From positions 18,659 through 82,658 of the forward strand of contig CAVSBV010000004.1 in assembly GCA_963726285.1 (NCBI GenBank): DNA of 64,000 nt, read 5' to 3'. The translations under genes and the position numbers were made by a program. This DNA comes from Vulcanimicrobiota bacterium. GTDB lineage: Bacteria > Vulcanimicrobiota > Vulcanimicrobiia > Vulcanimicrobiales > Vulcanimicrobiaceae. Position 1 is the stretch's first letter, and each line of letters begins with the position of its first letter. The notes beneath the pieces are model-generated. The model was not told the origin of the DNA. It searched no databases and saw only the letters and a list, made by a program, of their open reading frames with translations. Shown here in pieces: positions 14,814 through 38,915 of this stretch.

Positions 14814-14814
14814 G

Positions 14815-15487: not shown

Positions 15488-15492
15488 CGCGC

Positions 15493-19271: not shown

Positions 19272-19359
19272 GGTCCTGCGCGGGATCCGATGAAAGGCGG
19301 GCCGTACGGCTCATCTTCGTGAGCAGGTCGACAGGCGCCGCGGAAAGCATTTTCACAAA

Positions 19360-19815
19360 ATGACTAGACGTACTAAAGGGCTCTTATTGCTTGTGGCGAT
19401 AGCGTGCGTCACTTTCCCTTCGAGACTTCTCGCGCAGACTGTTCCGATGGAGAAGTTTACCGCCGACGAAAAGGCGTATCCGTCCAGCGTTGTAGCCGCC
19501 GACCGGAAATGCATCCTCACCGATCCTTCGCAGCACGACGAAGTAATCAAGGCGTGCGCGACGGCCGCGAATCTCATCGCGAAATTCGCCGTCGACCATC
19601 ATGGTAGCTTGTCGAATGACCAGATGGCTTGGGGTGTCATGCAGGAGGCGGAGAACAACTCCCAGGCCAGCAGCGCGGCGTGTCAGGCCGGAGCGGCGGA
19701 TATAGCGAACCGATTCATGAGTCGCGTACAGTACGAATATCAAACTGTCGCTGCGACGAAATCGGCCTACAGCGCGGAAGCGCAACAACGCTTGACCCAC
19801 CTGCAGTCCTGTTGA
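19360..19815 (+). CDS. secreted Cys-containing protein, function unknown
   Basis: 151 aa with the signal peptide MTRRTKGLLLLVAIACVTFPSRLLAQ. Confidence 0.6.
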   Translation: MTRRTKGLLLLVAIACVTFPSRLLAQTVPMEKFTADEKAYPSSVVAADRKCILTDPSQHDEVIKACATAANLIAKFAVDHHGSLSNDQMAWGVMQEAENNSQASSAACQAGAADIANRFMSRVQYEYQTVAATKSAYSAEAQQRLTHLQSC

Positions 19816-20513
19816 TCGACGCGAAGGCACTTGCCGCCGAGCGTTGGTTCGGGTACGGCCGATGGGATGCGCCTTATTGGTTCGTTGGAATGGAACCTGG
19901 CGGCGACGACACGCATGCGTCATACGACGCCTGGCTCGCGCTAGGCGCCGGTGAACTCATCGATTGCCGCTCGCATCACCAATGGGAACTTGAAACCAAA
20001 GGAATCGATAACCCCGATTGGACGAAATGGCACCGACGCGAGAGGCCGAACGTCACGCAGTCGACGTGGAGGTCGCTGATACAAGCCCTGCTCGCCTTCA
20101 AAGGCGAGCCTTCCGATCTCGAATCGGTGCGAGTCTATCAGCGCGATCGCTGGGGGATGCTTGCCGACGAGACGGCGGTCATCGAATTGAACGCACTCCA
20201 CGCGCCGAGCAGCGCGGCGAGAGTTGATCGTGAAACGCATCGCCCGCAGCGCATTCGTACGATCCGTGAACGCATGGCGCAGTTTCGACCGACGTTTGCC
20301 GTTTTCTACGGCAACGGCTACCGGCCGTCCTACGAGCAGATCGTCGGCGGGCCATTTGGTGAGGACGGGTTCGCGCGTAGCGGCAATACGATTTGCGCTC
20401 TCGTGCCGCACCCCGCGCGATCTGGAAAGAGTAGAGAGTGGTGGGACGAATTCGGGCAGCGTTTGCATTCGACGTCTTTGATTCACACGTCGTCGAATGC
20501 GTCGTCTGAATAG
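19812..20513 (+). CDS. hypothetical protein with uracil-DNA-glycosylase-superfamily-like motifs
   Basis: 233 aa if started at TTG 19812 (TTGA overlap with the upstream stop). The alternative start is the ATG of VGMEPGG. YWFVGMEPGG resembles UDG motif A (GExPG). ALVPHPARSG resembles motif B (HPS). Spacing and the intervening hydrophobic strands fit the fold. Confidence 0.5.
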   Translation: MIDAKALAAERWFGYGRWDAPYWFVGMEPGGDDTHASYDAWLALGAGELIDCRSHHQWELETKGIDNPDWTKWHRRERPNVTQSTWRSLIQALLAFKGEPSDLESVRVYQRDRWGMLADETAVIELNALHAPSSAARVDRETHRPQRIRTIRERMAQFRPTFAVFYGNGYRPSYEQIVGGPFGEDGFARSGNTICALVPHPARSGKSREWWDEFGQRLHSTSLIHTSSNASSE

Positions 20514-22363: not shown

Positions 22364-22410
22364 CGGTAGCCAGGAGATGCGCCAGGGATTCTCCGAACAC
22401 CTGTTCGCCT

Positions 22411-22644
22411 ATGAGCAGGCGGTACCAGGAGATCGAAGAGCGACGCGCGCGCGACATCGCTGGGGCGAAGACGACGCTCAAGGCGCTGGGTGATCGGGAG
22501 CGAGCCTATCTAATGATGTGGCTCCTTAAATATTTCGAGGATTCGGGGACGATGCGGTCACCGCAGGCGGGGAAGGCGCGGCGGACCATCGTCCTCGATG
22601 GCGAGGAGTTTTGGCTCGTGCGTATGCCTGACCGGCAACGCTAA
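22411..22644 (+). CDS. small hypothetical protein upstream of hsdR
   Basis: 77 aa from ATG 22411: MSRRYQEIEERRARDIAGAKTTLKALGDRERAYLMMWLLKYF... No family recognised. Confidence 0.45.
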   Translation: MSRRYQEIEERRARDIAGAKTTLKALGDRERAYLMMWLLKYFEDSGTMRSPQAGKARRTIVLDGEEFWLVRMPDRQR

Positions 22645-22738
22645 GACTTCGACCCACTTCGGAGCGTTGCTACAATACGGGACGACGTGATCCGAATGTC
22701 CCGGAAGCGTTCCGCGTCGACCGAGGAGAACTTGGGCC

Positions 22739-25700: not shown

Positions 25701-26155
25701 ACAAGATCGCGGCGCTGCGCATCGTAATGCAGCGGCCGCGCGATCTCTCACGCGAGTCGCTGAAGGAACTGGCGATGGCGCTCGACGCCAACGGTTTTCC
25801 GGAAGCCATGATACGTGCAGCGTTTCGCGACGCGCGCAACGAGGACATCGCCGCATCTCTGGTGGGATTCGTGCGACGGGCCGCGCTCGGCGACGCGCTC
25901 GAGCCGTGGGCGGACCGCGTCCATCGCGCGGTTGCGCGCATCCTAAAGCGACAGGCCTGGACTCAACCGCAGCGCCAATGGCTTGAGCGGATAGCCCGAC
26001 GAGTGGCGGAGATGGGCGTCGCTGACCGGACGGCTCTGGATGAAGAGCAATTCAAAGTGGCCGGCGGCTTCGCGCGACTCAACAAGATCTTCGATGGTAA
26101 GCTTGAGATGATTCTTGCCGACATCAACGACGAAGCATGGAAGGAAGCAGGTTGA
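22739..26155 (+). CDS. hsdR: type I restriction enzyme R subunit with an extra N-terminal DUF4145-like domain
   Basis: 1138 aa. N-terminal FHYIRRMGNVAIHEH (DUF4145/HEPN-like R..GN..aH), then an Ala/Glu coiled coil. PD-(D/E)xK nuclease ADYALFIG...GVIEAKRK. Helicase motifs MATGTGKT and VVDECHRG. EcoEI-type C-terminal helical domain. Confidence 0.9.
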   Translation: MMSLPGSANFAFLTRYDEALVRVAALAERYFPDDPVTSVMKVRQFGELLARETAARLGVFLSGEESQVDLLARLSRESGVPPEVTDLFHYIRRMGNVAIHEHRGDHTVSLAALKMAWQLAVWFHRTFGDRSFKSGAFAPPKPPPDPTVTLREQLEALRKERDASMSAAELAEARAAEAEAARLGAEERARKEAEERAFWEQYAAEAEAKAAPKFAMLQAETMALPLAQRSERRSAVLQAASGIVLDEAETRVLIDEQLRLRGWEADTQRIRYSAGVRPAKGRNLAIAEWPTESGPADYALFIGTTCVGVIEAKRKRKNVSAAIDQVARYAQCFRAEAGIDFARGSPWPAESSAESQLPYRIPFLFATNARPYLKQIETESGIWFRDVRQPTNLRRPLVDWFTPQGLEELIGTDKAKAHADLEAMPFDFGFQLRDYQERAIRAVEDAVSDDAARAALLAMATGTGKTKLAIAMLYRLLASKRFRRICFIVDRRALGEQAEGEFTTTRVVGVRTFADIFGLKGLDDIGIDPSTKVHICTIQGLVKRVLFAADPKDVPSVDQYDLMVVDECHRGYLLDREMSETELVFRDEADYVSKYRRVLEHFDAVKIGLTATPALHTTEIFGDPIFTYSYREAVVDGWLIDSEPPIRIQTALSADGIHFKRGEELRLFDPKTGDLDLAHAPDDLDFDIAEFNKRVLTREFNRVVAEELAKHIDPSLPGKTLVFAATDGHADILVDELKKAFEVQYGSIDDAAVKKITGSIDAPGKAIKRFRNDANPKVAVTVDLLTTGVDVPSIMNLVFVRRVNSRILFEQMLGRATRRCDEIGKETFRIFDAVGIYDALRDFTTMRPVVVNPSISFETLFHELTEVSDEKHRVLVRDQILVKLRRRISRLHEKALEQYEALAGETPQDTLKRIAGATPEDLAKWAQAKTGLGKILDWEPEGAGAASVSLVVSTHRDEHRSTTVGYGGAERPEDYLVAFAAFVRDNENKIAALRIVMQRPRDLSRESLKELAMALDANGFPEAMIRAAFRDARNEDIAASLVGFVRRAALGDALEPWADRVHRAVARILKRQAWTQPQRQWLERIARRVAEMGVADRTALDEEQFKVAGGFARLNKIFDGKLEMILADINDEAWKEAG

Positions 26156-27615
26156 ACCTGAACAGCAACGGTACGCGCGAAATCGTCACGAAGCTCTGGA
26201 ATCTCTGTCATATTTTGCGTGACGGTGGAATTACGTATCAGGCGTACGTCACCGAACTCACTTATCTGCTTTTTCTGAAAATGATGCAAGAGACGGAACG
26301 CGAGGCGGCGCTACCAAAAGGCTTTCGGTGGAACGACCTGATATCGCGCGAAGGCGAAGACCTTTTGACGTTCTACCGCACTTTGCTCCTCAAACTGGGT
26401 ACTGAAACAAAAGGCATAGTCCGAGAAATATTTGCTGATGCTCAGACCGGTTTGAAGCGGCCCACAGATCTTAAGGAACTCGTCACGCAAATCAATCGCC
26501 TGGATTGGTTCTCGGCGAAACAAGACGGCCTCGGCGATCTCTATGAGGGGTTGCTGGAGAGGAACGCAAACGAAAAGAAGTCGGGTGCCGGGCAATACTT
26601 CACGCCCCGCCCCTTGATTGATTGCATGGTGCGGGTACTAAGGCCCGAGCCTGGTGAGATCGTCCAAGACCCCGCTGCCGGAACAGGCGGATTTCTAATT
26701 GCCGCGGATCGCTTCATTAAGGAACGCACGGATGATCTCTTCGCTTTAAAGGCTTCAGAACAGCGCTTTCAACGTGAAGATGCGTTTCGCGGTTTGGAAC
26801 TCGTGCCCGACACGCATCGGATGCTTCTGATGAATTTAATGCTTCACGACATCGGCGGAAGTCACGTGCTCGGCGGCGATGCACTGAGTCCCGCTGGTGA
26901 GGCTCTCGGAAAAGCTGATTTAATACTTACAAATCCACCTTTTGGGACAAAAAAGGGCGGAGGTCGCCCAACTCGGACCGACTTCAGTATCACGGCTGAT
27001 TCCAGCAATAAGCAGCTCGCGTTTATTGAGCACGTAGTGCGCGCATTGAGGCCTGGGGGTCGCGCGGGGGTTGTTGTCCCTGACAACGTTCTCTCGGGCG
27101 AAGTCGGGCATGAATTACGTTCATGGCTAATGGAATTATGCGACGTCCACACCATTCTACGATTACCGCTAGGGTTGTTCTATGCCCAAGCAGTGAGAAC
27201 CAACGTCGTTTTCTTCTCTCGTGGGCAATCCGAAAAACGAAACACGTCGACAGTGTGGGTGTACGACCTTCGGGCTGGCCAACCGGCATATGGCAAGAAG
27301 CGCCCATTCAGCGCAGCGGACCTGGCTGAGTTTGTGAAATGCTACGGCGACGATCCTCTCGGAAAAGCTGCGAGAAGTGACTTGGGGATAGACGGTCGTT
27401 TCAAAGCATTTTCGCGCGACGAAATCGCTCGCCTTGGAGACGAGCTTCACTTGACGTGGCTCCGTAGCAACGATGAAGAGGCTGAATACTCGCTAGAAGA
27501 GCCTGAGGATATCGCCGAAGCGATGTTAGAACACTTGAATCAGGCAACCACAGAAATCGAGAAACTGGCAGCTTCGATCCGCGAAATGCCGCTGGAGTTG
27601 CTTGATGAACACTGA
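26137..27615 (+). CDS. hsdM: type I R-M N6-adenine DNA methyltransferase subunit
   Basis: 492 aa. HsdM N-terminal helical domain (KLWNLCHILRDGG), SAM motif DPAAGTGGFL, catalytic NPPFG. An alternative TTG start at 26152 would give a TTGA overlap with hsdR. Confidence 0.9.
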   Translation: MEGSRLNLNSNGTREIVTKLWNLCHILRDGGITYQAYVTELTYLLFLKMMQETEREAALPKGFRWNDLISREGEDLLTFYRTLLLKLGTETKGIVREIFADAQTGLKRPTDLKELVTQINRLDWFSAKQDGLGDLYEGLLERNANEKKSGAGQYFTPRPLIDCMVRVLRPEPGEIVQDPAAGTGGFLIAADRFIKERTDDLFALKASEQRFQREDAFRGLELVPDTHRMLLMNLMLHDIGGSHVLGGDALSPAGEALGKADLILTNPPFGTKKGGGRPTRTDFSITADSSNKQLAFIEHVVRALRPGGRAGVVVPDNVLSGEVGHELRSWLMELCDVHTILRLPLGLFYAQAVRTNVVFFSRGQSEKRNTSTVWVYDLRAGQPAYGKKRPFSAADLAEFVKCYGDDPLGKAARSDLGIDGRFKAFSRDEIARLGDELHLTWLRSNDEEAEYSLEEPEDIAEAMLEHLNQATTEIEKLAASIREMPLELLDEH

Positions 27616-28795
27616 TGCGGTCCCGTTAGAGGTCGCGTTGAGTGATGTCGCCACGCCCATCAATGAGCGAGCATCGCCGCGTGAAGCACCGGACATCCCC
27701 TTTATCGGATTAGAGCACATCACCTCTTATTCCGGTCAGCTTATCGGCACTGGGACGACGGCTGACGTTTCAAGTAGCGTAGCAAGATACTCCGAAGGAG
27801 ACCTTCTTTATGGTCGCTTACGGCCATATCTTAATAAGGTGGTTGTGGCTCCGTTTGATGGCGCGGCGTCGGCTGAGTTTATTGTGCTGAGACCCATGTC
27901 CGAAAACGTGTCCACGGAATACCTTAGGCTCGTTCTCCGATCGCCGATGTTTCTTGCGTTCACGTCGCAATTGGATCGTGGCGACAGACCACGGGTTAAG
28001 TGGGAGCAGATCAATAGATTTCGCTTCGAGTTGCCGTCGCCTTCAGATCAAAGGGCGATAGTCGACACAACTGCTCAAATGATGGAGCGGGTTAAATCTG
28101 CTTCTTGCGAGGTCAAGAAGTCAGTGGATCTATCAAGGCTACTTCTTGCACGGTTTACAGCGAACATTTTCGAGACGGCTAGCGAGGAGCATTGGCCAGA
28201 GATTCCTTTCGGACAATTGATTGCTGAGATGCGAAATGGGCTAGCGACGAAGCCGGCAAATGAGCCGCCTGGAATTCCAATTCTGAGGATTTCATCTGTA
28301 CGTTCCTTTACCGTCAACCTCGCCGACGTGCGTTACCACACGCTACTAAACGGCGACGCAAAGTATTTGCTGCGCAATAGAGATTTGCTGTTCGTGCGCT
28401 TCAACGGAAATGCGGAACTGGTTGCTGGATGCGGGATGGTGAGAGAAATTACGGGGGATATCGTATACCCAGATAAACTGATTCGCGTACGTGTTGATGA
28501 ATCGAGGGTCTTGCCGGAATACATCGAGTTGATATTCGCTGGCGAGAAAATGCGTCAGGATGTGTCAGTATTCGTTCGCACTGCCGCTGGTCAGCATGGT
28601 ATCTCGGGAGGCGATCTAAAGCGCGTGTCCCTCCCAATCCCTCCGATTGGAACGCAGCGAAGGATCGTGAAGCGCTTTGCCGTGGTCCGAGACGGAATAC
28701 TGCGTGTGTTGCATCAATGCGACCGCGCTGCTGCTCTTGCTTCAAAGATGGAAGGCGCGATCCTTGCCAGAGTCGTGACCGTGGCAAGCATTTAA
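27605..28795 (+). CDS. hsdS: type I R-M specificity subunit
   Basis: About 396 aa from ATG 27605 (TTG at 27602 also possible), overlapping the hsdM end. Two target-recognition halves each carry the GDLLYGRLRPYLNKV / RDLLFVRFNGNAELVG type motif. Confidence 0.85.
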   Translation: MNTDAVPLEVALSDVATPINERASPREAPDIPFIGLEHITSYSGQLIGTGTTADVSSSVARYSEGDLLYGRLRPYLNKVVVAPFDGAASAEFIVLRPMSENVSTEYLRLVLRSPMFLAFTSQLDRGDRPRVKWEQINRFRFELPSPSDQRAIVDTTAQMMERVKSASCEVKKSVDLSRLLLARFTANIFETASEEHWPEIPFGQLIAEMRNGLATKPANEPPGIPILRISSVRSFTVNLADVRYHTLLNGDAKYLLRNRDLLFVRFNGNAELVAGCGMVREITGDIVYPDKLIRVRVDESRVLPEYIELIFAGEKMRQDVSVFVRTAAGQHGISGGDLKRVSLPIPPIGTQRRIVKRFAVVRDGILRVLHQCDRAAALASKMEGAILARVVTVASI

Positions 28796-30111
28796 GAGCC
28801 TAGGTCTTCGTCCGCGAACGTTATCACGTAGCTTTCGGACATGTGCCGGCGCGAAATGTTGTTGTCGGCCAGCGGCATGAACTCGCCGCGCTCAACGCTG
28901 ACGACACGCATATCGTATGCGAGTATTCGTAAGGCGTCCTGGTAATTCTTAATCGTAAAAGGCGTTGACTCGTTGTGCGCCGCGTATATCGACGCGACGG
29001 TTAGACGCTGGCCCCGAAACGCCGATGGTAGCTCCTTCGTTAGACGCTGCATTGGCGTCTCGCCACTTAAAGGTAGTTTAAGACCGCCCTCGCCGGGGTT
29101 GAACTCAAAACTCGCAACGCCGTCTTGGTCGACGTCAGACGAGGCTCGGGCCATAATGCCTTTCATGATCTTTTGCGCCGGATCTAGATTCTTGGTCGCA
29201 AACATGATGTGATGATCGACTGCGCCCGTCGGCTTGCGAAACCGGTACTGAAGCACGTGTTTCGCTCCGATGTCGTATAGCGCGTCCCGCATCCCACCGA
29301 GCAATATCCGCTCTCTCGCTTCTTCGTCGGCGCTTCGAGTAAGCTCAGTCCGTGCCGCCTCGACGCGCTCGGCACCGAAGAGTGCGTTCATGTGTGAGCG
29401 AACCTTAGAGTTGCGTACCGCCGCGTTGATTCTGTTGAAATTGAAATAGAAGGCGATTTCGCATCCCCAGTCCTTGAGGATCGCTTGCATTAAGTCGCGC
29501 GTGAGACCGGCGTACCCAAAGGGATCAAGAAACATGAACGTTGGAATGAGAGAGCGAGTTTTGAATAAGTCTTCGATTTGTTTGCGCGCAGACTCGCCAT
29601 GGGAGATCTTCGGGGCATACGCAAGTGAGTCGACGCCGTCGAGACCAGCGAGGGCCTTCGACAACGACTGAGCCGCATCGGGGTCCTTGTCCTCGAACAG
29701 CATGAGCGTGATCTTGCGCAGTTGCTCGTCGGCTAGCACGGTGCGTGCGATCTGAAGAGGCGTCGATTCTGTGCCGTCGGCGTAGATGCCGGGGCCCGCG
29801 AAGAAATCGAAGTAACCGATCTTACCGCTGCGCGTTTTCGTCTTCATCACTCTCGCCCACGCGGTGAAGTAGTCGACGACGATTTTACTCTTGACGGCCG
29901 AAGCTGTGCGCTGCGCGTTGAAGAAACCCCGAGCTTGGGGCTCGGAGTGAGGCTCGAGTGCCGCCGGCGTCTCGAAATCGGAGAAGAGTGCCGGGCTGTT
30001 GGGATCCGCCTTTCTCCTGCGCAAATAGGGTCTCCCGATGGCCTGTTCGCCGACATGTTCAAGGAACACAGGCGCGGCCCCGGCCTCCCTTTGCAGAGGG
30101 CGGCTCGACAT
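28792..30111 (-). CDS. tcmP: three-Cys-motif partner protein TcmP
   Basis: 439 aa. KSKIVVDYFTAWARVM...IGYFDFFAGPGIY matches my recollection of the TcmP (TIGR04474) N-terminal signature. It is adjacent to a Gp37/Gp68 gene, as that family typically is. Its stop overlaps the hsdS stop by 4 nt. Confidence 0.7.
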   Translation of the reverse strand: MSSRPLQREAGAAPVFLEHVGEQAIGRPYLRRRKADPNSPALFSDFETPAALEPHSEPQARGFFNAQRTASAVKSKIVVDYFTAWARVMKTKTRSGKIGYFDFFAGPGIYADGTESTPLQIARTVLADEQLRKITLMLFEDKDPDAAQSLSKALAGLDGVDSLAYAPKISHGESARKQIEDLFKTRSLIPTFMFLDPFGYAGLTRDLMQAILKDWGCEIAFYFNFNRINAAVRNSKVRSHMNALFGAERVEAARTELTRSADEEARERILLGGMRDALYDIGAKHVLQYRFRKPTGAVDHHIMFATKNLDPAQKIMKGIMARASSDVDQDGVASFEFNPGEGGLKLPLSGETPMQRLTKELPSAFRGQRLTVASIYAAHNESTPFTIKNYQDALRILAYDMRVVSVERGEFMPLADNNISRRHMSESYVITFADEDLGS

Positions 30112-30155
30112 GTCACACTACAAAACGGCCCGGAATGGGGGCCGGAGGAGCAACA

Positions 30156-30911
30156 GTGGCCGGCAAGAGCCAGATCGAGTGGACGGAAAACACCTGGAAC
30201 CCAGTTACGGGATGCACGCAGGTGTCGCCGGGGTGCGACCGGTGCTACGCCATGCGGCTCGTGAACGTACGGCAGGTCAACAATCCACGGAGCCCGCGTT
30301 ACGGACATCCCTTCGATGAGGTGATGCTACACGCGGATCGTCTCGATCAACCGTCCCGCTGGAAGTCGCCGAGGCGCATCTTCGTAAACAGCATGAGCGA
30401 TGTCTTTCATAAAGACGTGCCCGATGTTTTCATCGACCGCGTCTTCGGCGAAATGGAGCGATGCGGGCAGCACGTATTTCAGGTGCTCACCAAACGTGCC
30501 GAGCGGATGAAACGCTACGTCAATAAGCGCTACAAGGGATCGTCGTGCCCGCCACACATCTGGCTCGGCGTATCGGTCGAAAATATGGATTACGCATGGC
30601 GCGCAGAGATGCTCAGAGCGACCGCTGCAACCGTCCGCTGGGTTTCCGCGGAGCCGCTCATCGGCTCGGTATCGGGTCTGGAACTCGACGGCATTGACTG
30701 GCTCGTAGCCGGCGGCGAGTCCGGGCCAGGAGCGCGCCCGATGGACGCTCAGTGGGTCCGTGAGTTGCGCGACCAGTGCAAGATCGCCGGAGTGAAATTC
30801 TTCTTCAAGCAGTGGGGTGGCGAAACAAAGAAGGGCGGCGGCGAACAGGCCACGCTCGACGGCCGGCGCTGGACGCAATATCCGAGCAAGAAGACGAAGC
30901 GGGCCGCCTGA
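30156..30911 (+). CDS. phage Gp37/Gp68-family (DUF5131) three-Cys-motif protein
   Basis: 251 aa from GTG 30156, with GGAGGAG 5 nt upstream (ATG 30135 is an alternative). MAGKSQIEWTENTWNPVTGCTQVSPGCDRCYA is the family N-terminal signature with a Cx5Cx2C motif. Confidence 0.8.
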   Translation: MAGKSQIEWTENTWNPVTGCTQVSPGCDRCYAMRLVNVRQVNNPRSPRYGHPFDEVMLHADRLDQPSRWKSPRRIFVNSMSDVFHKDVPDVFIDRVFGEMERCGQHVFQVLTKRAERMKRYVNKRYKGSSCPPHIWLGVSVENMDYAWRAEMLRATAATVRWVSAEPLIGSVSGLELDGIDWLVAGGESGPGARPMDAQWVRELRDQCKIAGVKFFFKQWGGETKKGGGEQATLDGRRWTQYPSKKTKRAA

Positions 30912-31006
30912 TTCAGTCTTCTCGCGCGCTCCGTGGTAGCTAGCGAATTCATCTCATGGGGTTCCCGAACGAGTGAATCCGCTACTTACCCGTGCGCGGA
31001 GCGACG

Positions 31007-31155
31007 CTTTAGGTAACAAGCAATTTCACCTCATAGCCCTGGGCATGATGATGCTCAGCCCACCGGTCGTCTCGCTGCCCGTCAAGCTCCTGCTCTTCGT
31101 GATGGTCGACGGTTGGGCGCTGGTCTGCGGAGGCGTAGCCACGAGCTTTAGATGA
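31007..31155 (+). pseudogene. fliP: fliP 3'-terminal remnant, direct-repeat copy A
   Basis: Encodes [42 protein letters not shown]-stop. This aligns with the E. coli FliP C-terminus [42 protein letters not shown]. There is no FliP body upstream. Confidence 0.8.
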
Positions 31156-31213
31156 GTCTAGTGGAGACAGCGTTGACGGATGATAGTAGAACCACTATCA
31201 TCGTGAGGCTTGG

Positions 31214-31555
31214 ATGAAGCCCGTCCTTTGGGCCGGCAGCTCCGAGAAGGATCTCGAAGGTATGCCAGATGTTCCGCGACTCGAGATTCGCGCAGCGATA
31301 TTCGCCGCGCAGAGTGGCGGCAAGGTTGGATACTCGAAGCCGATGCGCGGCGACCTCAGATATGTCATGGAGGTCGTTGCTCACGATCGAGACGGCACGT
31401 TTCGAGGAATGTACTACGTCGGAAAAGAGTTTATCTATGCCCTCCACTTCTTCCAAAAGAAAAGCAAGCAAGGTATCAAAACGCCGCAAAGGGAGCTCGA
31501 TCTCATCCGCCGTCGGCTCGCGTGGGCGCGCCATCACGAAAAAACAGGCGGATGA
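31214..31555 (+). CDS. higB: HigB/RelE-superfamily toxin (Gp49/DUF891-like)
   Basis: 113 aa. YALHFFQKKSKQGIKTPQRELDLIRRRL is the characteristic F-x-KK-t-x-k-TP C-terminal pattern of Gp49-like toxins. Confidence 0.75.
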   Translation: MKPVLWAGSSEKDLEGMPDVPRLEIRAAIFAAQSGGKVGYSKPMRGDLRYVMEVVAHDRDGTFRGMYYVGKEFIYALHFFQKKSKQGIKTPQRELDLIRRRLAWARHHEKTGG

Positions 31556-31559
31556 GCCG

Positions 31560-31883
31560 ATGACCTATATCGTGACAGCAAGCGCTTGGGATGGGGAGCC
31601 CGACCAAGAAGAGTTGGAGGCGAAGTCGTTTCTCGCTCTTGAAATTCTTCGTCGCATCGAGGCCCTAGGTATCTCCCAGCGAGAGGCCGCAAAGCGGCTC
31701 GGCGTCGCTCAAGCCGATATCTCGAAGATCGTCAACTTCAAGGTGTGGGGATTCTCGCTCCCCCGGTTGTCACAACTACTATCGAAGCTCGGCGCTGACG
31801 TCGATATTCGCGTACGGGTACGATACACGGATGGCCTAGGTAGCCTTCGTATTGCAACGACGAAGGCTCGCCGAGCCGCATAG
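31560..31883 (+). CDS. higA: XRE-family HTH antitoxin (HigA-like)
   Basis: 107 aa from ATG 31560, 4 nt after the toxin stop. HTH: LGISQREAAKRLGVAQADISKIVN. Confidence 0.75.
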   Translation: MTYIVTASAWDGEPDQEELEAKSFLALEILRRIEALGISQREAAKRLGVAQADISKIVNFKVWGFSLPRLSQLLSKLGADVDIRVRVRYTDGLGSLRIATTKARRAA

Positions 31884-31921
31884 TGGATCGGCTGCTTTCT
31901 GGCACCTTAGGAAGATTGGGA

Positions 31922-32368
31922 TCAAACGGGCTTGTCGCTGCAGTGGTTGGTGTAGAAACTAATGCCATTGCCGTCGGGATCTTGCATCGAGAAATAATGA
32001 TGACCGTATAGTATGCCATCTGCGATAGATGATGGTGAATATCCATTATCAATCAGCCTGGCCCTGTAAATTTCCAGATCCGTTTTTGTGGGCCCGGCGA
32101 TCATCAGATCTAGTCTTTCGCTTCCAAAATCTGGTCTTTGGCCGACATGACTATTCTGCAGCGCGCTGCTCTGGTCGTCGCCCTTTTGAAAGAGCAGCAA
32201 ATGTGTGCCGCCGCGCAGTTCAACGATCGCCATTCCGGGGAATGTCGCGAATGCGCGGAGACCCAAGCCAATATAAAATTGATAACTCGCCTCGATGCTT
32301 TGCACGTGCATGACAAAGTGAGCAAGGGCCGCGGCGGGTAAAAGGTCTTCCATTTCGAGTCCTTTCAT
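31922..32368 (-). CDS. VOC (glyoxalase/bleomycin-resistance/dioxygenase) family protein
   Basis: 148 aa. It has the beta-alpha-beta-beta-beta module pattern LAHFVMHVQSIEASYQFYIGLGL ... HYFSMQDPDGNGISF. Confidence 0.6.
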   Translation of the reverse strand: MKGLEMEDLLPAAALAHFVMHVQSIEASYQFYIGLGLRAFATFPGMAIVELRGGTHLLLFQKGDDQSSALQNSHVGQRPDFGSERLDLMIAGPTKTDLEIYRARLIDNGYSPSSIADGILYGHHYFSMQDPDGNGISFYTNHCSDKPV

Positions 32369-32431
32369 GGAATTCGTTAGTGGTTACCTGAGGAGAGCAG
32401 TCTTGCCGCACTAGCGTCGCCGTGCTAATCT

Positions 32432-32469
32432 GACTAACCAGTCGGAAATTATTATGCGACTGTCCAGTC
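32432..32469. promoter_or_regulatory. candidate TetR operator pair
   Basis: Two similar small palindromes, each followed by ggaaa: gactaaccagtc (32432-32443) and gactgtccagtc (32458-32469). They lie in the gap between the divergent VOC and TetR genes. Confidence 0.35.
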
Positions 32470-32484
32470 GGAAAAGCAAGAGGG

Positions 32485-33063
32485 TTGTTGGTGACGCGGA
32501 AAAAGGAAATTGATAGGGACAGGGTCCTGGATGCCGCCGAGGCCGTCATCCTTGAATCTGGCGGCCGAAATTTCACGCTTGATGCTGTGGCGGAGCGCGC
32601 GGGGATTAGCAAGGGCGGGCTCGTCTATACCTTTGCGACTAAGGATGGATTAGTACACGCGGCGCTAGAGCGAGAAGTGGCCCGCTTTCAGGAGGCAGTG
32701 CGTCGGCGACTCGGCAGCAGGCCAACTGGGCCGGTCGAGTTGGTCCTCGCGCATATCGAGGAAGCACTGGACGAGGACGACGCCTCGACTCAACTGGCGT
32801 CTTTTCTCATTACCGCCCTGGTGCACGCCCCTGACATGCTGGGGCCGGTGCGACACCTTTACCGCGGACTACTCGATCCGCTTCGATCAGGGCATGGTGA
32901 GGTTGCTGAAATACGTCACGCACTACTGGCTGTTGAAGGCATATTTCTGCTCCGAGGACTCGGGTTTGCAGAGGTTTCAGCAGACGAGCTCAAGTCCGTC
33001 CTGCTTCACGCACGCAACATCGTTCTTGCGGCCTTGGATACATCGGCGTCCCGACCGCTCTGA
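32485..33063 (+). CDS. TetR/AcrR-family transcriptional regulator
   Basis: 192 aa (start among TTG 32485, TTG 32488, GTG 32491). N-terminal HTH: RDRVLDAAEAVILESGGRNFTLDAVAERAGISKGGLVYTF. Confidence 0.85.
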   Translation: MLVTRKKEIDRDRVLDAAEAVILESGGRNFTLDAVAERAGISKGGLVYTFATKDGLVHAALEREVARFQEAVRRRLGSRPTGPVELVLAHIEEALDEDDASTQLASFLITALVHAPDMLGPVRHLYRGLLDPLRSGHGEVAEIRHALLAVEGIFLLRGLGFAEVSADELKSVLLHARNIVLAALDTSASRPL

Positions 33064-33094
33064 GAATAAAAGCCTAACGATGAGTGCAGCGGCG

Positions 33095-33243
33095 CCTTAG
33101 GTACGTAACATTTTCATCTCATAGGCCTTGGGATGATGATGCTCAGCCCGCCGGTCGTCTCGCTACCGGTCAAGCTCTTGCTCTTCGTGATGGTCGACGG
33201 CTGGGCGCTGATCTGCGGAGGCGTTGCCGCCAGCTTTAGATAA
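33095..33243 (+). pseudogene. fliP: fliP 3'-terminal remnant, direct-repeat copy B
   Basis: Encodes [42 protein letters not shown]-stop, preceded by an in-frame TAA. By hand alignment 128 of 149 nt are identical to copy A. There is no FliP body upstream. Confidence 0.8.
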
Positions 33244-33255
33244 GGCAAGGTCATC

Positions 33256-34155
33256 GTGCGCATCTCCGAGGCCCTCGCAACGCAGCGTCCATTCTTTTCC
33301 TTCGAGTTCTTTCCACCAAAGGATGACGATGGCGCGCGCGCGCTTTTAGCCACGATCGAACTGCTTGCACCGCTCCGTCCGGCGTTCGTTTCGATCACCT
33401 ACGGTGCCGGTGGCTCGTCGCGTGAGCGCACGGTCGCGCTTGCCAAGCAGATCGAGCGCGACCTCGGGCTTACGGTGATGGCGCACGTGACGTGCGTGGG
33501 CTCGTCGCGCGCGGACCTGCGCGCGCTCTTTGACGATCTTGCTCGTGGCGGCATTCAAAACGTGCTGGCGCTTCGCGGAGACCCGCCCAAGGGGGCGAGC
33601 GCATTTGAAGTGGCACCCGGCGGCTTCGCGTACGCGAGTGACCTCGTCGCGATGTTGCGCCGCAATTACGATTTCTGCATCGGCGCTGCGTTCTATCCCG
33701 AGACGCATGCCGAAGCGGAAAGTCCCGAGGCCGATCTTGCGCACCTCAAAGAGAAGGTCGACGCCGGCGCGGATTTCTTGGTCAGCCAGCTCTTCTTCGA
33801 TAACGATCGCTATGCGGAGTTTCTCGCTCGCGCACAGCGGGCCGGCATCGATGTGCCGATGATCCCGGGGCTCATGCCGATTACCAACGCCTCGCAGATT
33901 TCACGCTTTACCTCGAGCATCGGCGCATCGATTCCTCCGAAACTTCTGCGCGAACTCGAGTTACGTCGCGAGGATTCGAAGGCGGTCGAGGATTTGGGTG
34001 TGGCGTACGCTGCGTTGCAAGCAACAGAGCTGCTCGGCCGCGGTTCGCCGGGGATTCATTTCTATACGCTCAATCGTTCGCCGGCGACGCGGGCGATTGT
34101 CTCTGCACTCATCGCCGGGAGCGCATGGCGCCCTAGTTTTGGAGCAGTACACTGA
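33256..34155 (+). CDS. metF: 5,10-methylenetetrahydrofolate reductase
   Basis: 299 aa: FSFEFFPPKDDDG, SITYGAGGS, LALRGDPP. Confidence 0.9.
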   Translation: MRISEALATQRPFFSFEFFPPKDDDGARALLATIELLAPLRPAFVSITYGAGGSSRERTVALAKQIERDLGLTVMAHVTCVGSSRADLRALFDDLARGGIQNVLALRGDPPKGASAFEVAPGGFAYASDLVAMLRRNYDFCIGAAFYPETHAEAESPEADLAHLKEKVDAGADFLVSQLFFDNDRYAEFLARAQRAGIDVPMIPGLMPITNASQISRFTSSIGASIPPKLLRELELRREDSKAVEDLGVAYAALQATELLGRGSPGIHFYTLNRSPATRAIVSALIAGSAWRPSFGAVH

Positions 34156-34817
34156 TGATCGAACGTGCCGAGGACGTCGACGCCTATCTCGCCGCGCAAT
34201 TCGTTGGTGATGATCCGGATTTGGAACAAGCGCTCGAGCGCAGCGAAGCCGCCGGCTTGCCGCCGATCGCCGTGTCTGCCGTGCAAGGAAAATTCTTGTA
34301 TCTGCTTGCGGATCTGCGCGGTGCGCGGCGCATCCTCGAGATCGGCACGCTCGGCGGCTACAGCGCGATCTGGCTCGCGCGGGCGCTCCCGGCCGATGGG
34401 TTGCTCCTCAGCCTCGAGATCGATCCCGAGCACGCAGATGTAGCGCGCGCGAATCTCGCCGCCGCCGGCCTCGATGCGGTGACGACGGTGGAAGTCGCGC
34501 CCGCGCTCGAGAGTCTCGATCGGCTGATCGCCGAAGGTGCGGCGCCGTTCGATTTGATCTTTATCGATGCAGACAAAGAAAACAATCCCAACTATCTCGA
34601 GCGCGCGCTCAAGCTCTCGCAGCCCGGCACGGTGGTCGTGGTCGACAACGTTGTCCGCGATGGCGCCGTCGCCGATCTTTCGAACGTGGATCCGATGGTT
34701 GTCGGCGCCCGGCGTGCCCTCGAAATCCTCGCCACGAACCCGCGATTTGAAGCCACGGCGCTGCAAACCGTTGGAGATAAGGGCCACGACGGCTTCGCCG
34801 TGGCGATCGTGCGGTAA
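34155..34817 (+). CDS. class I SAM-dependent O-methyltransferase (caffeoyl-CoA OMT-like family 3)
   Basis: 220 aa: RILEIGTLGGYSAIWLA and FDLIFIDADKENNPNY. One-nt TGATG overlap with metF. Confidence 0.85.
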   Translation: MIERAEDVDAYLAAQFVGDDPDLEQALERSEAAGLPPIAVSAVQGKFLYLLADLRGARRILEIGTLGGYSAIWLARALPADGLLLSLEIDPEHADVARANLAAAGLDAVTTVEVAPALESLDRLIAEGAAPFDLIFIDADKENNPNYLERALKLSQPGTVVVVDNVVRDGAVADLSNVDPMVVGARRALEILATNPRFEATALQTVGDKGHDGFAVAIVR

Positions 34818-34871
34818 CGGCGTTTCGATTCCGGCAACATTGAGGTAACGTCGGCTGCCTACTGTCGGCGG

Positions 34872-35141
34872 ATGGGCGCATTCGACGCGTTGCTGCGCGA
34901 AACGATGGTGCTGGCCGCGATCCTCTGCATTCCGGTCTTAGCGATAGCCGCGCTCGTCGGCACGTCGGTTGCGATCGTGCAGGCGGCAACGCAAGTGCAA
35001 GAGCAGACGCTCACGCTCCTGCCCAAAGTGATCGCGGTGGGGTTGACGTTGGCCCTCTTCGGGGCGTTTGGAATGCACGCATGCGCGCAACTCTTCAACG
35101 ATGCGCTCGCAGCGATTCCGGCACTGGTCTACGGATCGTGA
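34872..35141 (+). CDS. fliQ: flagellar-type export gate protein FliQ
   Basis: 89 aa: IVQAATQVQEQTLTLLPKV. Confidence 0.9.
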   Translation: MGAFDALLRETMVLAAILCIPVLAIAALVGTSVAIVQAATQVQEQTLTLLPKVIAVGLTLALFGAFGMHACAQLFNDALAAIPALVYGS

Positions 35142-35851
35142 CGGCGACGGCGTTGCTGGTCTTTGCACGCTGCGCCGGCTTTGCATCGCGCGCACCCGGG
35201 TTCTCGCACCCAAGCGTACCGCACGCAGTTCGCGTGGGAATCGCACTCTTCTTGACCATCGCGATCGTTCCGGGCGTGCGCACAGCGCACGCGGCCGGCG
35301 TTATTCTCGCTATCGCATTTCTGGTTGAGTTCTTGCTCGGAAGTGCGATAGGCATGGGCGCGTCGCTCCTATACGACGGGGCGTATGCGGGTGGGCGCAT
35401 GCTCGACGACTACGTTGGCGTCAAGGCGATGGCACCGAACGTGCAACTGGTTGCGCCGAGCGGCTTCGGACGCGTCTGGTCAATAGCATTTACCGGCGGA
35501 TACTTTTTGCTCGGTGCTTACCGCGTGACGCTCGTGGCCTTTGCGCGCAGCTTCGACCGTGTCACGCCGGGTGCACCGTTCGACCCGCATGCGTGGCTCG
35601 CGTTCGCGTGCACGCTCGCGAGCACGATCGTGCTGGTCGGCGTTGCCGTGGCCGCACCGGCAATTGCACTCGCATTCGTCGTGCAGGTTGCGGTCGCCGC
35701 ACTGACGCGTACGATTCCTCGTTTCGCCGGTTTCTCGCTCTCGTTTCCACTCGTTTTTGGTGCGGTGTTGCTCGTGACCGCGGTCTCGATTCCGCTCCTC
35801 TCTGCTCGTGCCGGCCATCCGCTGTTGCCGTTCCCGGGAAATATACCGTGA
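35138..35851 (+). CDS. fliR: flagellar-type export gate protein FliR
   Basis: 237 aa from GTG 35138 (GTGA overlap with the fliQ stop). Polytopic: LVFARCAGFASRAPGFSHPSVPHAVRVGIALFLT. Confidence 0.85.
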   Translation: MTATALLVFARCAGFASRAPGFSHPSVPHAVRVGIALFLTIAIVPGVRTAHAAGVILAIAFLVEFLLGSAIGMGASLLYDGAYAGGRMLDDYVGVKAMAPNVQLVAPSGFGRVWSIAFTGGYFLLGAYRVTLVAFARSFDRVTPGAPFDPHAWLAFACTLASTIVLVGVAVAAPAIALAFVVQVAVAALTRTIPRFAGFSLSFPLVFGAVLLVTAVSIPLLSARAGHPLLPFPGNIP

Positions 35852-36861
35852 GTAACGACAGCGGCGAGAAGACGTTCGATGCACCACCGTCACGCATAGC
35901 GAAGGCGCGTCGCGAGGGCAATCTCCCGCGCGCACAAGAGTTTAGCGGAAACCTCGCGTTCGTTGCCGCCGCTGCGGGCGTCTGCGCGATTGCCGCACCG
36001 CTGGGCGCTATTGGAAGAGAAGCCTTGCGGCACGCCGTACGCGGCACGCTCGATGTGGGAAGTCTTCTCGCAATCGTCGCGCTCGCGCTGGTTCCAGCGT
36101 GCCTGGCAGCGGTTGCGGGCGTCGCGGCCACACTCGTGCAAAGCGGCGGCCTCGTGCCCGTCGCCCCGGCGTTAAAGTTCGAGCGGCTGCAGCCGGTCGA
36201 GGGCATCAAGCGCATGCTTTCGCGCGAGGCACTCACCCATGGCGCGCGCGCGCTTTGCGCCTTTACGCTGGCGTCCGTGGCGATGCTTCCGGCGCTGCGC
36301 GACCTTGCACGTGCGGGAGCTGTCGCGTTAGCGCCGCAAAGTGTGGCGCTGATCGCCTGGAACGGGGCGCAGCGCGTGGTCTGGGCCGCAGCCGCAATAG
36401 GGTTGCTCTTTGCAATTGCAGAGTACGGTGTCGCTCGGCGAACATGGCTGCGCAAGTTGCGCATGAGCCTTGCCGAGCTCAAGCGCGAGCTGAAGGAGCA
36501 TGACGGCGATCCGATCGCGCGAGGCCGGCGTAAGGCGTTACATCGTAACCTTATGCGCGGTGCGCTCGCCAAAGTAAAAGAGGCGGCGTTCGTCGTCGTC
36601 AATCCGACGCACATTGCAATCGCGCTCGACTATCGGCCGCCGGCGGTTGCGGTGCCGACCGTGCTCGTGCGCGCTGCGGGCGAGATGGCCTTGCGCGTGC
36701 GCGAGTTTGCGACGGAAGAAGGCATCCCCGTGATCGAAAACGTGACGCTGGCCCGAGCGCTCTATCGCGACGGTGCCGTCGGTGAACCGATCGCCTACGA
36801 ACAGTACATCGCCGTCGCCGAGATCGTTGCCGCGTTGATCAAGAGCGGGGCGCTCCTATGA
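35848..36861 (+). CDS. flhB: flagellar-type export switch protein FlhB
   Basis: 337 aa from GTG 35848 (GTGA overlap). N-terminus SGEKTFDAPPSRIAKARREGNLPRAQE, NPTH autocleavage site (VVVNPTHIAIAL). Confidence 0.9.
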   Translation: MSNDSGEKTFDAPPSRIAKARREGNLPRAQEFSGNLAFVAAAAGVCAIAAPLGAIGREALRHAVRGTLDVGSLLAIVALALVPACLAAVAGVAATLVQSGGLVPVAPALKFERLQPVEGIKRMLSREALTHGARALCAFTLASVAMLPALRDLARAGAVALAPQSVALIAWNGAQRVVWAAAAIGLLFAIAEYGVARRTWLRKLRMSLAELKRELKEHDGDPIARGRRKALHRNLMRGALAKVKEAAFVVVNPTHIAIALDYRPPAVAVPTVLVRAAGEMALRVREFATEEGIPVIENVTLARALYRDGAVGEPIAYEQYIAVAEIVAALIKSGALL

Positions 36862-38915
36862 CGCGCGTGCCGGTGTACGCCTTTGCCGGCGTGCTGCTGG
36901 CGATAGTCGGCATCCTCATCGTGCCGCTCCCGCCGGCGCTGCTCGACATCTTACTCGGAATCAACATCTTCGGCTCGGCGCTCGTCCTGTTGCTCGCGGT
37001 GACGATCGACGACCCGCTGGAGTTCTCGGCCTTTGCGCCTGCGCTGCTGGTTGCCACGCTCTTTCGCCTCTCGCTCGACGTGTCGGCAACGCGCTTGATC
37101 CTGACGCAGGGCGCGACTCCGGGCGAGGTTGGCGCGATCATTCCCGCGTTCGGGGCATTTGTCGTACAGGGTAATCTCGTCGTGGGACTGATCGTTTTCG
37201 CGATCCTGATTACGATTCAGTTCGTGGTCATCGCCAGCGGTTCGCAACGCGTTGCAGAAGTTGCGGCCCGCTTCACGCTCGACGCGATGCCGGGCAAGCA
37301 GATGGCAATTGATGCCGACGTGCACGCCGGGGCGCTCGACGCGGAAGGCGCGCGTCGCAAGCGCGCGCTGGTCCAGCGCGAGGCCGATTTCTACGGTGCG
37401 ATGGATGGCGCCGGAAAGTTCGTCAAGGGCGATGCAATCGCAGCCCTTGTGATCGTTGCATTAAATATCGTCGGCGGCATCGTTGTCGGAATCGCCTATC
37501 ACGGTCTCTCGCCGCTGGATGCGATCGATACGTTCGCCTTGCTCTCGATCGGCAATGCGCTCGTGACGACGTTGCCCGCTTTCCTTATCTCTACGGCGAT
37601 GGGGATGATGGTTACGCGCGTCGCCTCCGACGGAGCACTCGGCGCGGACCTCGCGGCGCAACTCTTTGCTCGGCCCGACGTCCTGCGCAGCGCTGGGGCG
37701 ATGCTGCTCGTGCTCTCGTTCGTGCCGGCGCTTCCGCGACCGGTCTTCCTCGTACTCGGCGCGAGCGCGTTCGTGCTCGCACACGTGGCGGCAGCACGCA
37801 GGAAGCGCAGCGACGACGAGGCGCGGGCATCGAGCGAGCGTGCAAAGCGTCAGGCGTTGCGCCGGCCCGAACTTGCGCTCAATCTCGTCGGAGTCGACGC
37901 GATGTCGATCGATATCGGCGCGGATCTCGCACACCTGCTCGTGCCGCCGCTGGCCGACGCGTTACTCGATCGCATCGGCGAAGTACGGCGCGCGCTCGCC
38001 GGCGAGATTGGGCTCGTGCTACCCGGCGTGCGTCTGCGCGACGACCTTGCGCGCGATCCGCAAACCTATGCGATTCGCGTGCGCGACCGCGTCGTTGCGC
38101 AGGGGCGCTTGGAGCTCGGCCGCGTGATGGCCGTCGCGAATGCAGAACAGCTCGTGCGACTCGGGTTGCGCGTTGAAACAGAGCCGGTCTACGCATTGCC
38201 GGCGGCGTGGATCGATGCGAGCGAGAGTGAGCGCGCGGCTTCGGCCGGTGCGCTCGTCTTCGACCCGATCTCGATCGTCGGTTCGCACGTAGCGGAAACG
38301 GTACGTCGCTACGCGAGCGAACTGCTCGGTCGCCAAGAGCTCCAAACGCTGCTCGAACATCTGCGGGCAACCATGCCGGCACTTGTCCGGGACGTCGGAA
38401 CGGATGCATTTCCGCTGGGTGTGTTGCACAAAGCCTTCGGGCATTTACTGCGCGAGCAAGCGTGGCCGCGCGATCCCGTAGCGGTGCTGCAGGCGATGCT
38501 GGAGTCACCGTCGCGCGACTCGCGTGAGTTGGCCGAAATTGCGCGACGCGTGATTCTTCCCGATTTGGTGCGCCGCCGCACTATCGAGCAGTTGGAGCCG
38601 CTCGTCATCGACGCGGAATACGACCGCGAGCTCGTGCGTCAATGGGGTGGCTTTGGCGCCGACCTGGCTCCCGATCCGCAGCGTGCAATCGCGCTGCGCG
38701 ACGAGGTCGCGGCGTACGTCGCGAAAGTTCCGCGCGATCGCGCTGCTGTGTTGTGCAGCGCTGCGCTGCGACCGGTGCTCGCCGATCTGTTGCTACGCTC
38801 GGAGGTTCACGTCGACGTGCTCAGCTACGCCGAGCTGCCGCCGGAGTTGACACTGGCTCCGGTTGGCATGCTCGGCGCTACAGATGGAGCGCGCGTACCA
38901 GTAGGAGCAGGGTGA
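36858..38915 (+). CDS. flhA: flagellar-type export protein FlhA
   Basis: 685 aa with ATGA overlap onto flhB: FRLSLDVSATRLILTQG and MPGKQMAIDAD. Confidence 0.9.
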   Translation: MTRVPVYAFAGVLLAIVGILIVPLPPALLDILLGINIFGSALVLLLAVTIDDPLEFSAFAPALLVATLFRLSLDVSATRLILTQGATPGEVGAIIPAFGAFVVQGNLVVGLIVFAILITIQFVVIASGSQRVAEVAARFTLDAMPGKQMAIDADVHAGALDAEGARRKRALVQREADFYGAMDGAGKFVKGDAIAALVIVALNIVGGIVVGIAYHGLSPLDAIDTFALLSIGNALVTTLPAFLISTAMGMMVTRVASDGALGADLAAQLFARPDVLRSAGAMLLVLSFVPALPRPVFLVLGASAFVLAHVAAARRKRSDDEARASSERAKRQALRRPELALNLVGVDAMSIDIGADLAHLLVPPLADALLDRIGEVRRALAGEIGLVLPGVRLRDDLARDPQTYAIRVRDRVVAQGRLELGRVMAVANAEQLVRLGLRVETEPVYALPAAWIDASESERAASAGALVFDPISIVGSHVAETVRRYASELLGRQELQTLLEHLRATMPALVRDVGTDAFPLGVLHKAFGHLLREQAWPRDPVAVLQAMLESPSRDSRELAEIARRVILPDLVRRRTIEQLEPLVIDAEYDRELVRQWGGFGADLAPDPQRAIALRDEVAAYVAKVPRDRAAVLCSAALRPVLADLLLRSEVHVDVLSYAELPPELTLAPVGMLGATDGARVPVGAG

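Follow-up and report, generated by a model that had tools for sequence, protein, structure and literature searches.

Two fliP tails in a Vulcanimicrobiota contig as probable junctions of successive site-specific insertions into a flagellar export gene

The 64-kb stretch of Vulcanimicrobiota DNA analyzed here (contig CAVSBV010000004.1 of assembly GCA_963726285.1, positions 18,659 to 82,658; referred to below as the window) contains two diverged direct copies of the 3' end of the flagellar export gene fliP, which most probably represent attR-type right-hand junctions of two successive site-specific insertions into a single fliP attachment site. The inserted DNA comprises a 2-kb islet that resembles a cis-mobilizable element (CIME) and, to its left, the right-hand 31 kb (window positions 1 to 31035) of an integrated transfer element, which is either an integrative and conjugative element (ICE) or an integrative and mobilizable element (IME), continues at least 7.3 kb past the left edge of the window, and is at least 38 kb in total. 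The arrangement is likely to have arisen by tandem accretion of the ICE-like element and the CIME-like islet. The host belongs to the uncultured Eremiobacterota/Vulcanimicrobiota and comes from soil; the closest FliP in a scan of one genome per species was 93% identical.

A repeat finder aligned positions 30993 to 31161 with positions 33081 to 33249 (169 nt, 85% identity). The 149-bp direct repeats reported within these intervals by a preliminary description of the window (31007 to 31155 and 33095 to 33243) are real, with 129 of 149 positions identical where 128 had been counted, and a 33-nt core pattern occurred exactly twice in the window and not once in 100 shuffles. Each repeat is made up of ~43 nt of non-fliP element end, followed by 120 nt coding for FliP residues 179 to 218 plus the stop codon. 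The preliminary description was right that the repeats encode the C-terminal end of FliP (~42 residues by its count), but the left 29 to 43 nt of each are a shared element-end motif and not part of FliP. The two coding parts, copy A (31036 to 31155, plus strand) and copy B (33124 to 33243, plus strand), both match the Pfam FliP family (PF00813) over profile positions 156 to 189 of 191 (E = 4.5e-13 and 1.1e-12) and align to residues 178 to 218 of the 218-aa FliP from a conspecific contig. When the full-length conspecific FliP was used as a tblastn query, residues 178 to 218 were found twice and no FliP body was found in the 64 kb, in agreement with the earlier statement that neither copy has a FliP body upstream. 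Copies A and B differ at 13 of the 120 nt, with 8 of the differences at third codon positions; the codon changes comprise 8 that are synonymous, 3 that alter an amino acid (A/G, V/I, and T/A), and 1 in the stop codon (TGA versus TAA).

Public contigs encoding the exact MetF protein of the window served as the entry point for comparing the site among related genomes, a comparison that the preliminary description had proposed, and they revealed both empty and islet-only sites. At the empty site (L001, an 84-kb ENA contig, and L003), the gene order is fliN-fliP-metF-OMT-fliQ-fliR-flhB-flhA, where OMT is an O-methyltransferase gene, and metF begins 12 nt after an intact fliP encoding 218 aa. The islet-only state was found in L002 (ENA, 486 kb) and in L089, a clean short-read contig. 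In L089, an intact 218-aa FliP that ends in the copy A sequence is followed by the 2-kb islet, copy B, and metF, and in L002 the 2-kb islet likewise comes after fliP, with a FliP tail of 36 codons between it and metF. In the window, the order from left to right is the transfer and defense element, copy A, the islet, and copy B. The right flank of the window is 99.1% identical to L001 and 98.1% identical to L002 over 10.9 kb, so that L001, L002, and the window represent strains of one species. The breaks in fliP (called there as 200 aa) and flhA in L002 come from single-base indels (at 7800 to 7900 and 13600 to 15700) that reflect errors of long-read assembly rather than biology, and the fliP reading frame is intact in the short-read contig L089.

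These three states give the order of insertion. Copy B differs from the tail of the intact fliP at the empty site of L001 and L003 at 2 of 120 nt and has the same 12-nt spacer between it and metF, and it is thus the original chromosomal tail, codons 179 to 218 and stop. Copy A together with the next 68 nt is identical to the attL junction of L089 from position 3 on (188 of 188 nt; positions are counted from 31036), with only the upstream arm and position 2 differing. Copy A is therefore the replacement tail brought by the islet and later cut off from fliP by the large element, and it follows that the islet was inserted first and the large element second. The proposal in the preliminary description that an insertion at the 3' end of the gene supplied a replacement tail is supported by the empty, islet-only, and window states, and its view that two tails imply tandem or successive insertions is supported by the islet-only conspecifics L089 and L002, which represent the intermediate preceding arrival of the large element. 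Its explanation of the mostly third-position differences, that both tails evolved as functional coding sequence, likewise holds, since copy B is the native tail and copy A is an islet-borne tail that completes FliP in L089 and in L012, a contig from a different species.

The two insertions share their ends. The right-end arm of the large element (the P arm of attR, 30993 to 31035, plus strand), which ends in ...TTTCACCTCATA, is identical at 32 of 43 positions to the right-end arm of the islet (33081 to 33123, plus strand), which ends in ...TTTCATCTCATA and is identical in L002 and L012. An end motif of ~24 nt (...TCATCTCATA; consensus, GGTAGCnAGnAAATTCATCTCATA) immediately precedes the distal tail of seven independent elements, namely, the large element of the window, the islet shared by the window, L002, and L012, and the islets in L013, L021, L102, L119, and L137; no similarity was detected among the seven further upstream of the motif. 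The end motif is followed by G(G/C)CCTNGGN-ATGATGATG, where the target core can also be written as G(G/C)CCTNGGNATGATGATG, and in the large element the arm sequence ...CTCATAGC precedes CCTNGGN. The equivalent of the site in an intact fliP reads GCGATGCTGATG GGCCTNGGN ATGATGATG, in which ATGATGATG corresponds to three Met codons that are invariant in the loci examined. An imperfect inverted repeat, CATCTCAT...ATGATGATG, is predicted from sequence around AG(G/C)CCTNGGN. The att core had no exact match when IMG/VR was scanned for its pattern. A tRNA target was considered and rejected, as the window contains no tRNA gene.

Alignment of the copies, which the preliminary description had suggested as a way of defining the core crossover site, narrowed the exchange point to a few nucleotides. 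The attR of the large element is defined in two contexts, the window (30993 to 31155) and L007, one of three Logan contigs (L171, L008, and L007) from sample ERR11594406 that carry the element. Position 2 (31037) is the C of the element in both contexts, whereas position 6 (31041) follows the target, being G in the window and T in L007. Because position 2 is of the element type and position 6 of the partner type, exchange is placed between them (31037|31038 to 31040|31041), giving a strand-exchange interval of 31037 to 31041 (plus strand) within G(C)|CCT|G from the window, L089, and L007 junctions. Read from these alignments, exchange takes place within G(G/C)|CCT|NGGN, just 5' of ATGATGATG. 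In L007, the right end of the element, ...CTCATA GCCCTTGGG ATGATGATG CTCAGCCCG..., continues into a native-type tail (CATA-GCCCTTGGG...CCCG), where the window has GCCCTGGGC...CCCA; L007 positions 14905 to 14931 correspond to window positions 31041 to 31067, and the contig ends 32 nt into the tail. The exact toxin protein of the islet is not on record for sample ERR11594406. The two right-hand partners of the large element imply either that it was inserted in an islet-free strain or that L007 reads into the element's own attP. Only empty-site and islet-only contigs were retrieved when FliP variants P0001 and P0014 and the islet toxin were looked up.

The most probable mechanism is one in which each element of the family would carry a conserved arm of ~24 to 43 nt (...GGTAGCnAGnAAATTCATCTCATA) at one end and its own fliP tail at the other, so that integration would rebuild a full-length FliP from the chromosomal body and the tail of the element while the old tail would be pushed to the far side as a scar. 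In a first step, the recombinase-less 2-kb islet would have been inserted into fliP, leaving the native tail behind as copy B. In a second step, the transfer element of at least 38 kb would have been inserted into the left, fliP-proximal junction of the islet, leaving the islet tail behind as copy A. The left end of the large element would encode the recombinase, most likely a tyrosine recombinase, which would also move the recombinase-less islets, in trans or in cis, and an intact fliP with a third tail would lie at the left junction of the element.

Several observations weigh against this reconstruction. The contig L171 extends the large element by 7.3 kb to the left, a direction in which the preliminary description had expected an intact fliP ending in a third repeat next to a recombinase; the element does continue, and neither the window nor this extension contains a fliP body, a third tail, or a recombinase. 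Annotation of positions 1 to 31035 and of the 7.3 kb with Pfam, NCBIfam, and PADLOC, covering the larger open reading frames (ORFs) and the L171 gene calls with a few short called genes outside the scan, recognized no integrase, excisionase, or other recombinase; there was no match to Phage_integrase, Resolvase/Recombinase, or DDE families, and the left end of the element lies beyond the 38 kb examined. A 47-aa fragment at the edge of L171 gave no matches in a homologue search. No match to VirB4, TrbE, or TraC was found in the 38 kb either, and no recombinase was recognized in any of ~20 islets, in which most ORFs were read by eye rather than run through Pfam. Two junctions also depart from a simple integration product. 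Compared with that of L089, the left junction of L012 has differences at positions 3, 6, and 9, hence at 3 of the first 9 tail positions, and agrees with it over the following >160 nt, and the tail in L009 is a mosaic that is native for ~105 nt and of the islet type only near the stop codon. Since the available sequence includes neither the fliP body nor a third tail nor a recombinase, we infer rather than observe that the large element separates fliP from fliQR in this genome. The intactness of fliQ, fliR, flhB, and flhA suggests that fliP is likely to have been kept intact as well.

The lack of any recognized recombinase, whether in the islets or in the scanned ORFs of the 38 kb of the large element, favors a different view, in which the islets, rather than being decayed relatives of the large element, form a cassette system of their own that is inserted and stacked at the fliP tail by an outside recombinase, such as a chromosomal Xer-like enzyme (as for IMEX elements or pdif modules) or an integron-like integrase, and the large element merely shares the hot spot. 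Cassette arrays typically hold cargo of the kind seen in the islets (toxin-antitoxin pairs, GNAT, and glyoxalase genes), tandem runs of as many as three tails are found, with modules reshuffled from genome to genome, and the exchange region lies between the arms of the imperfect inverted repeat (CATCTCAT / ATGATGATG). This view is nevertheless unlikely. The right end of the large element has the arm motif of the islets (32 of 43 positions) and the same exchange point, and the large element therefore belongs to the same site family. In addition, the site is by reading unlike the dif consensus, and the toxin-antitoxin genes of the islet have a promoter-like site of their own. Folded attC sites of the integron type were rejected because the single-strand folds of the att regions are no better than those of shuffled sequences (z = 0.35 and 0.77), and no integrase gene was recognized in the fliP loci whose inserts were examined, mostly by eye. 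A related and broader proposition, that the fliP tail anchors a previously undescribed cassette-like system in which recombinase-less, mostly toxin-antitoxin modules carrying a working copy of the last 40 codons and a ~24-nt arm are stacked, exchanged, and disseminated among species by a recombinase of a new family or one supplied in trans, is improbable but deserves mention. If true, the core of such a system would be fixed by three nondegenerate Met codons (ATGATGATG), an invariance that could allow phylum-wide spread.

The departures seen in L009 and L012 raise the further question of homologous recombination. It is possible to regard the tails as its substrates and products, with islets spreading through flanking fliP and metF homology after DNA uptake and tails persisting as patches of homology rather than as att sites. 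The mosaic tail of L009, with its crossover near the stop codon, the restriction of the L012 and L089 differences to the first 9 nt of the tail, and the partial tail remnants of various lengths in L011, L047, L060, and L093 would all fit. As a full account, this is very unlikely, since the first duplication cannot arise by homologous exchange, the conserved non-fliP arm meets every distal tail at the same nucleotide, and the boundary of the large element does not change between its two contexts; furthermore, the islet in L012 is 99.5% identical to that of the window while the flanking proteins are 85 to 89% identical, and its junctions there are reciprocal and precise. The L012 and L089 differences and the L009 mosaic do indicate that homologous exchange between tails also occurs. 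Read together with the sharp boundary that follows them, the differences at positions 3 to 9 suggest a short swappable segment, such as the overlap region of a recombinase; positions 3, 6, and 9 are also the synonymous sites of the Gly-Leu-Gly codons.

An assembly artifact, or a chimeric contig in the bin formed by a join at the repeated tail, with the large element not truly beside the flagellar locus, is extremely unlikely, because, even though the source is a metagenome-assembled contig, short-read assemblies break at the tail repeats (L007, L006, and L089 all end in or near tails), and L002 has frameshift errors, each junction type is present in an independent assembly (element end to fliP tail in the Logan contig L007, fliP to copy A to islet in L089, and islet to copy B to metF in L002 and L012), and copy A of the window joins the element-specific C at position 2 to islet-specific sequence, which a chimeric join at the shared repeat would not do.

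The islet (31156 to 33123) is 99 to 100% identical in L002 and L089 and includes four called genes: a Gp49/HigB-like toxin gene (31214 to 31555, plus strand; PF05973, E = 2.6e-14), a HTH_37/HigA-like antitoxin gene (31560 to 31883, plus strand; PF13744, E = 1.7e-19), a glyoxalase/VOC gene (31922 to 32368, minus strand), and, divergent from the latter, a TetR regulator gene (32485 to 33063, plus strand), the last two also assigned by Pfam. Among the five ORFs scanned with Pfam, including all four called genes, no integration or transfer gene was found. In L002, L089, and L012, the islet sits between fliP with copy A on one side and the arm motif with the native tail on the other; these flanks and the lack of integration and transfer genes are those of a CIME. 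Immediately upstream of the toxin gene (31173 to 31213), a consensus scan identified a promoter-like site (31173 to 31201, plus strand; TTGACG-17-TATCAT, 10 of 12 matches) that overlaps a palindrome read from the sequence, GATGATAGT-N6-ACTATCATC, and together they plausibly form the operator of an autoregulated toxin-antitoxin operon.

The distribution of the islet points to horizontal spread between species. The islet is 99.5% identical in L012, where FliP, MetF, and FlhA are only 85 to 89% identical to those of the window, L009 matches its first 830 nt at 98% identity, and versions of its toxin-antitoxin end that are 75 to 82% identical follow fliP in L013, L021, L093, L095, L133, and L137. 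The islet in L012 has a 262-bp deletion at 11864|11865 in which the glyoxalase-TetR intergenic region is lost, and in L009 (10538 to 10657 and 11488 to 11609) only the toxin-antitoxin end is retained and the fliP tail is the mosaic described above. The L012 deletion and the L009 mosaic indicate, as far as can be read from the sequences, decay of the islet and gene conversion between tails.

The gene order fliP-metF-...-fliQ-fliR-flhB-flhA is conserved across the phylum. In the window, the native downstream genes (33256 to 38915, plus strand) are all intact, are assigned by Pfam, and follow the same order as in L001 and the phylum: fliQ (34872 to 35141), fliR (35138 to 35851), flhB (35848 to 36861), and flhA (36858 to 38915), all on the plus strand and followed by secD and secF. 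The preliminary description had these four flagellar genes following the repeats on the same strand, and all are present, with metF (33256 to 34155) and the O-methyltransferase gene (34155 to 34817) natively intervening. The placement of metF, often with the O-methyltransferase gene, within the operon for flagellar export, where it separates fliP from fliQ (33256 to 34817 in the window, 10001 to 11562 in L001, and most of L009 to L169), is both odd and conserved and has no evident rationale.

A survey of 122 loci containing both fliP and metF, from genomes and JGI metagenomes, showed the two genes to be adjacent in 96 (metF at most 300 bp from fliP) and separated by an insert of more than 300 bp in the other 26. 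One or two extra FliP tails were present at 11 of the 122 loci (~10%), giving up to three tails in all at some, and tail remnants at the DNA level occur in a few further loci. Judged from their ORFs, the islets carry mostly toxin-antitoxin modules (Gp49/HTH_37, DUF4160/DUF2442-like, BrnT-like with an MqsA-like antitoxin, and RelE-like), and other cargo includes GNAT, glyoxalase, aldo-keto reductase with AraC, and Fic genes. The fliP-metF gaps in L018 (9 kb) and L027 were considered as elements and rejected, as they contain ordinary chromosomal genes (encoding a solute-binding protein, regulators, PrpD, and TctA). The large element was found in none of ~160 other fliP loci.

The large element showed no mismatch to L171, L008, and L007 over window positions -7340 to 14171 and 16137 to 31035, with 14172 to 16136 outside the loci compared; the 3 mismatches to the Logan contigs all fall at 31041 to 31062, within the tail. 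The earlier characterization of the DNA to the left of the repeats as transfer and defense cargo proved accurate. The transfer genes include a coupling-protein-like gene (T4CP, 667 aa; 2523 to 4526, minus strand), recognized by Pfam TraG-D_C (E = 3.4e-5) and weak TraD/VirD4-like NCBIfam matches, and a TraA_Ti-like relaxase-helicase gene (7555 to 11055, plus strand) with Pfam Relaxase and AAA_30 domains. The match of the latter to NCBIfam TIGR02768 (TraA_Ti; E = 1.2e-62) scores 212 bits against a curated cutoff of 590, making it family-like and not an equivalog. Of the components expected of an ICE, the relaxase and the coupling protein are thus present, the latter through a weak match, and an integrase and a VirB4-type ATPase were not seen in the 38 kb. 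With no VirB4-type ATPase found, the element may be mobilizable (IME) rather than self-transmissible, or the corresponding genes may lie further left.

Defense genes occupy the right part of the element. The type I restriction-modification genes hsdR, hsdM, and hsdS (22739 to 28795, plus strand) were assigned by Pfam and by PADLOC (REase_I, E = 3e-247; MTase_I, 5e-193; Specificity_I, 4e-50). The last genes of the element are a divergent pair consisting of a TcmP-like gene for a three-Cys-motif partner protein (28792 to 30069, minus strand; NCBIfam TIGR04474) and a DUF5131 gene (30156 to 30911, plus strand; Pfam), with limits taken from the L007 gene calls, and the pair matches the PADLOC candidate defense systems PDC-M30 and PDC-M41. 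The element also holds a ParA-like gene and many unassigned genes for lipoproteins and secreted proteins, and its 7.3-kb extension on L171 contains an ECF-type sigma factor gene, an HTH gene, and small genes without assignment. Most genes of the element have no Pfam match, and the coupling protein and the 173-aa product of an ORF at 1174 to 1695 found only themselves among 5.8 billion proteins; on the basis of these comparisons, the transfer machinery appears highly divergent.

Other repeats were noted within the large element and beyond it. A perfect 33-nt inverted repeat (1741 to 1773 and 15717 to 15749, 13.9 kb apart) encloses the genes for the coupling protein, the ParA-like protein, and the relaxase; both arms coincide with breaks in the Logan contigs, and the segment between them may be invertible or nested. 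A 111-nt repeat (84% identical; window 418 to 527 and L171 4250 to 4360) and, nearby, two small lipoprotein genes sharing the motif SPLPAT...PLTISYS (window 905 to 1084 and L171 ~5143 to 5616) resemble a duplicated module inside the element. In the right flank, two genes encoding ~690 aa each (44537 to 46633 and 52108 to 54180), which lie 7.5 kb apart and share 71 to 75% nucleotide identity over several stretches (repeat families D1, D2, and D4), are chromosomal paralogues.

Islands and ICEs at the 3' ends of tRNA and tmRNA genes are inserted by tyrosine integrases, carry the 3' part of the gene, and are flanked by direct repeats. The fliP elements are similar in having a fixed crossover point in a gene, gene-end repeats as flanks, and tandem islands at one gene. 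They differ in that the window has no tRNA gene, in that the repeat is protein coding and diverges mainly at synonymous sites, and in that three Met codons, rather than an RNA stem, are the best-conserved part of the target. Tyrosine recombinases of the Tn916/CTnDOT type tolerate heterologous overlaps of 6 to 7 bp ("coupling sequences"), which the difference between L012 and L089 at 3 of the 7 positions of CCTNGGN, followed by none in more than 160 nt, resembles; unlike the fliP system, Tn916 and CTnDOT have low target specificity and rebuild no gene. IMEX elements, pdif modules, and integron cassettes are recombinase-less modules moved by enzymes supplied in trans. The small, stacked, recombinase-less modules at fliP, often encoding toxin-antitoxin pairs and bounded by repeated recombination sites, are comparable, but the fliP site is not dif-like and has no significant single-strand fold, its repeats are functional gene ends, and no IntI or Xer gene was seen near it.

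The closest precedent is provided by ICESt1, ICESt3, and the associated CIMEs at the 3' end of fda in Streptococcus thermophilus, for which an accretion-mobilization model has been proposed (review PMC5704250, citing Pavlovic et al. 2004 and Bellanger et al. 2011). As at fda, insertion at fliP is into the 3' end of a protein-coding gene, whose displaced end is made good by a copy on the element; decayed elements lacking both integration and transfer genes persist between att sites; and a second element enters an att site of the resident, producing a tandem array with repeated gene ends. The usual entry site of an incoming element is attR, according to the same review; in contrast, the incoming element at fliP used attL, the junction that keeps the gene body. 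The fliP system also differs in its target (fliP in Eremiobacterota rather than fda in Firmicutes), in the lack of an integrase in the 38 kb examined, in the dominance of toxin-antitoxin modules among its islets, and in transfer proteins without detectable close relatives. A full-text literature search combining fliP, integrative conjugative element, and attB gave no report. The process itself is well known; what is new is the target gene fliP and the host phylum, together with an unusually well-resolved site and a very divergent transfer element.

The empty, islet, and islet-plus-transfer-element states form a natural time series within one species, from which att sites can be read at nucleotide level without experiment. 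An essential flagellar export-gate gene serves in these bacteria as an attachment site, with its C terminus routinely replaced by element-borne sequence, and because the three Met codons cannot vary without changing the protein, one site may serve the whole phylum. Annotators and binning pipelines should expect orphan "FliP" mini-ORFs and contig breaks at the fliP locus. The fliP site offers a means of finding mobile elements, together with their recombinase, in the Eremiobacterota, in which almost no mobile elements have been described.

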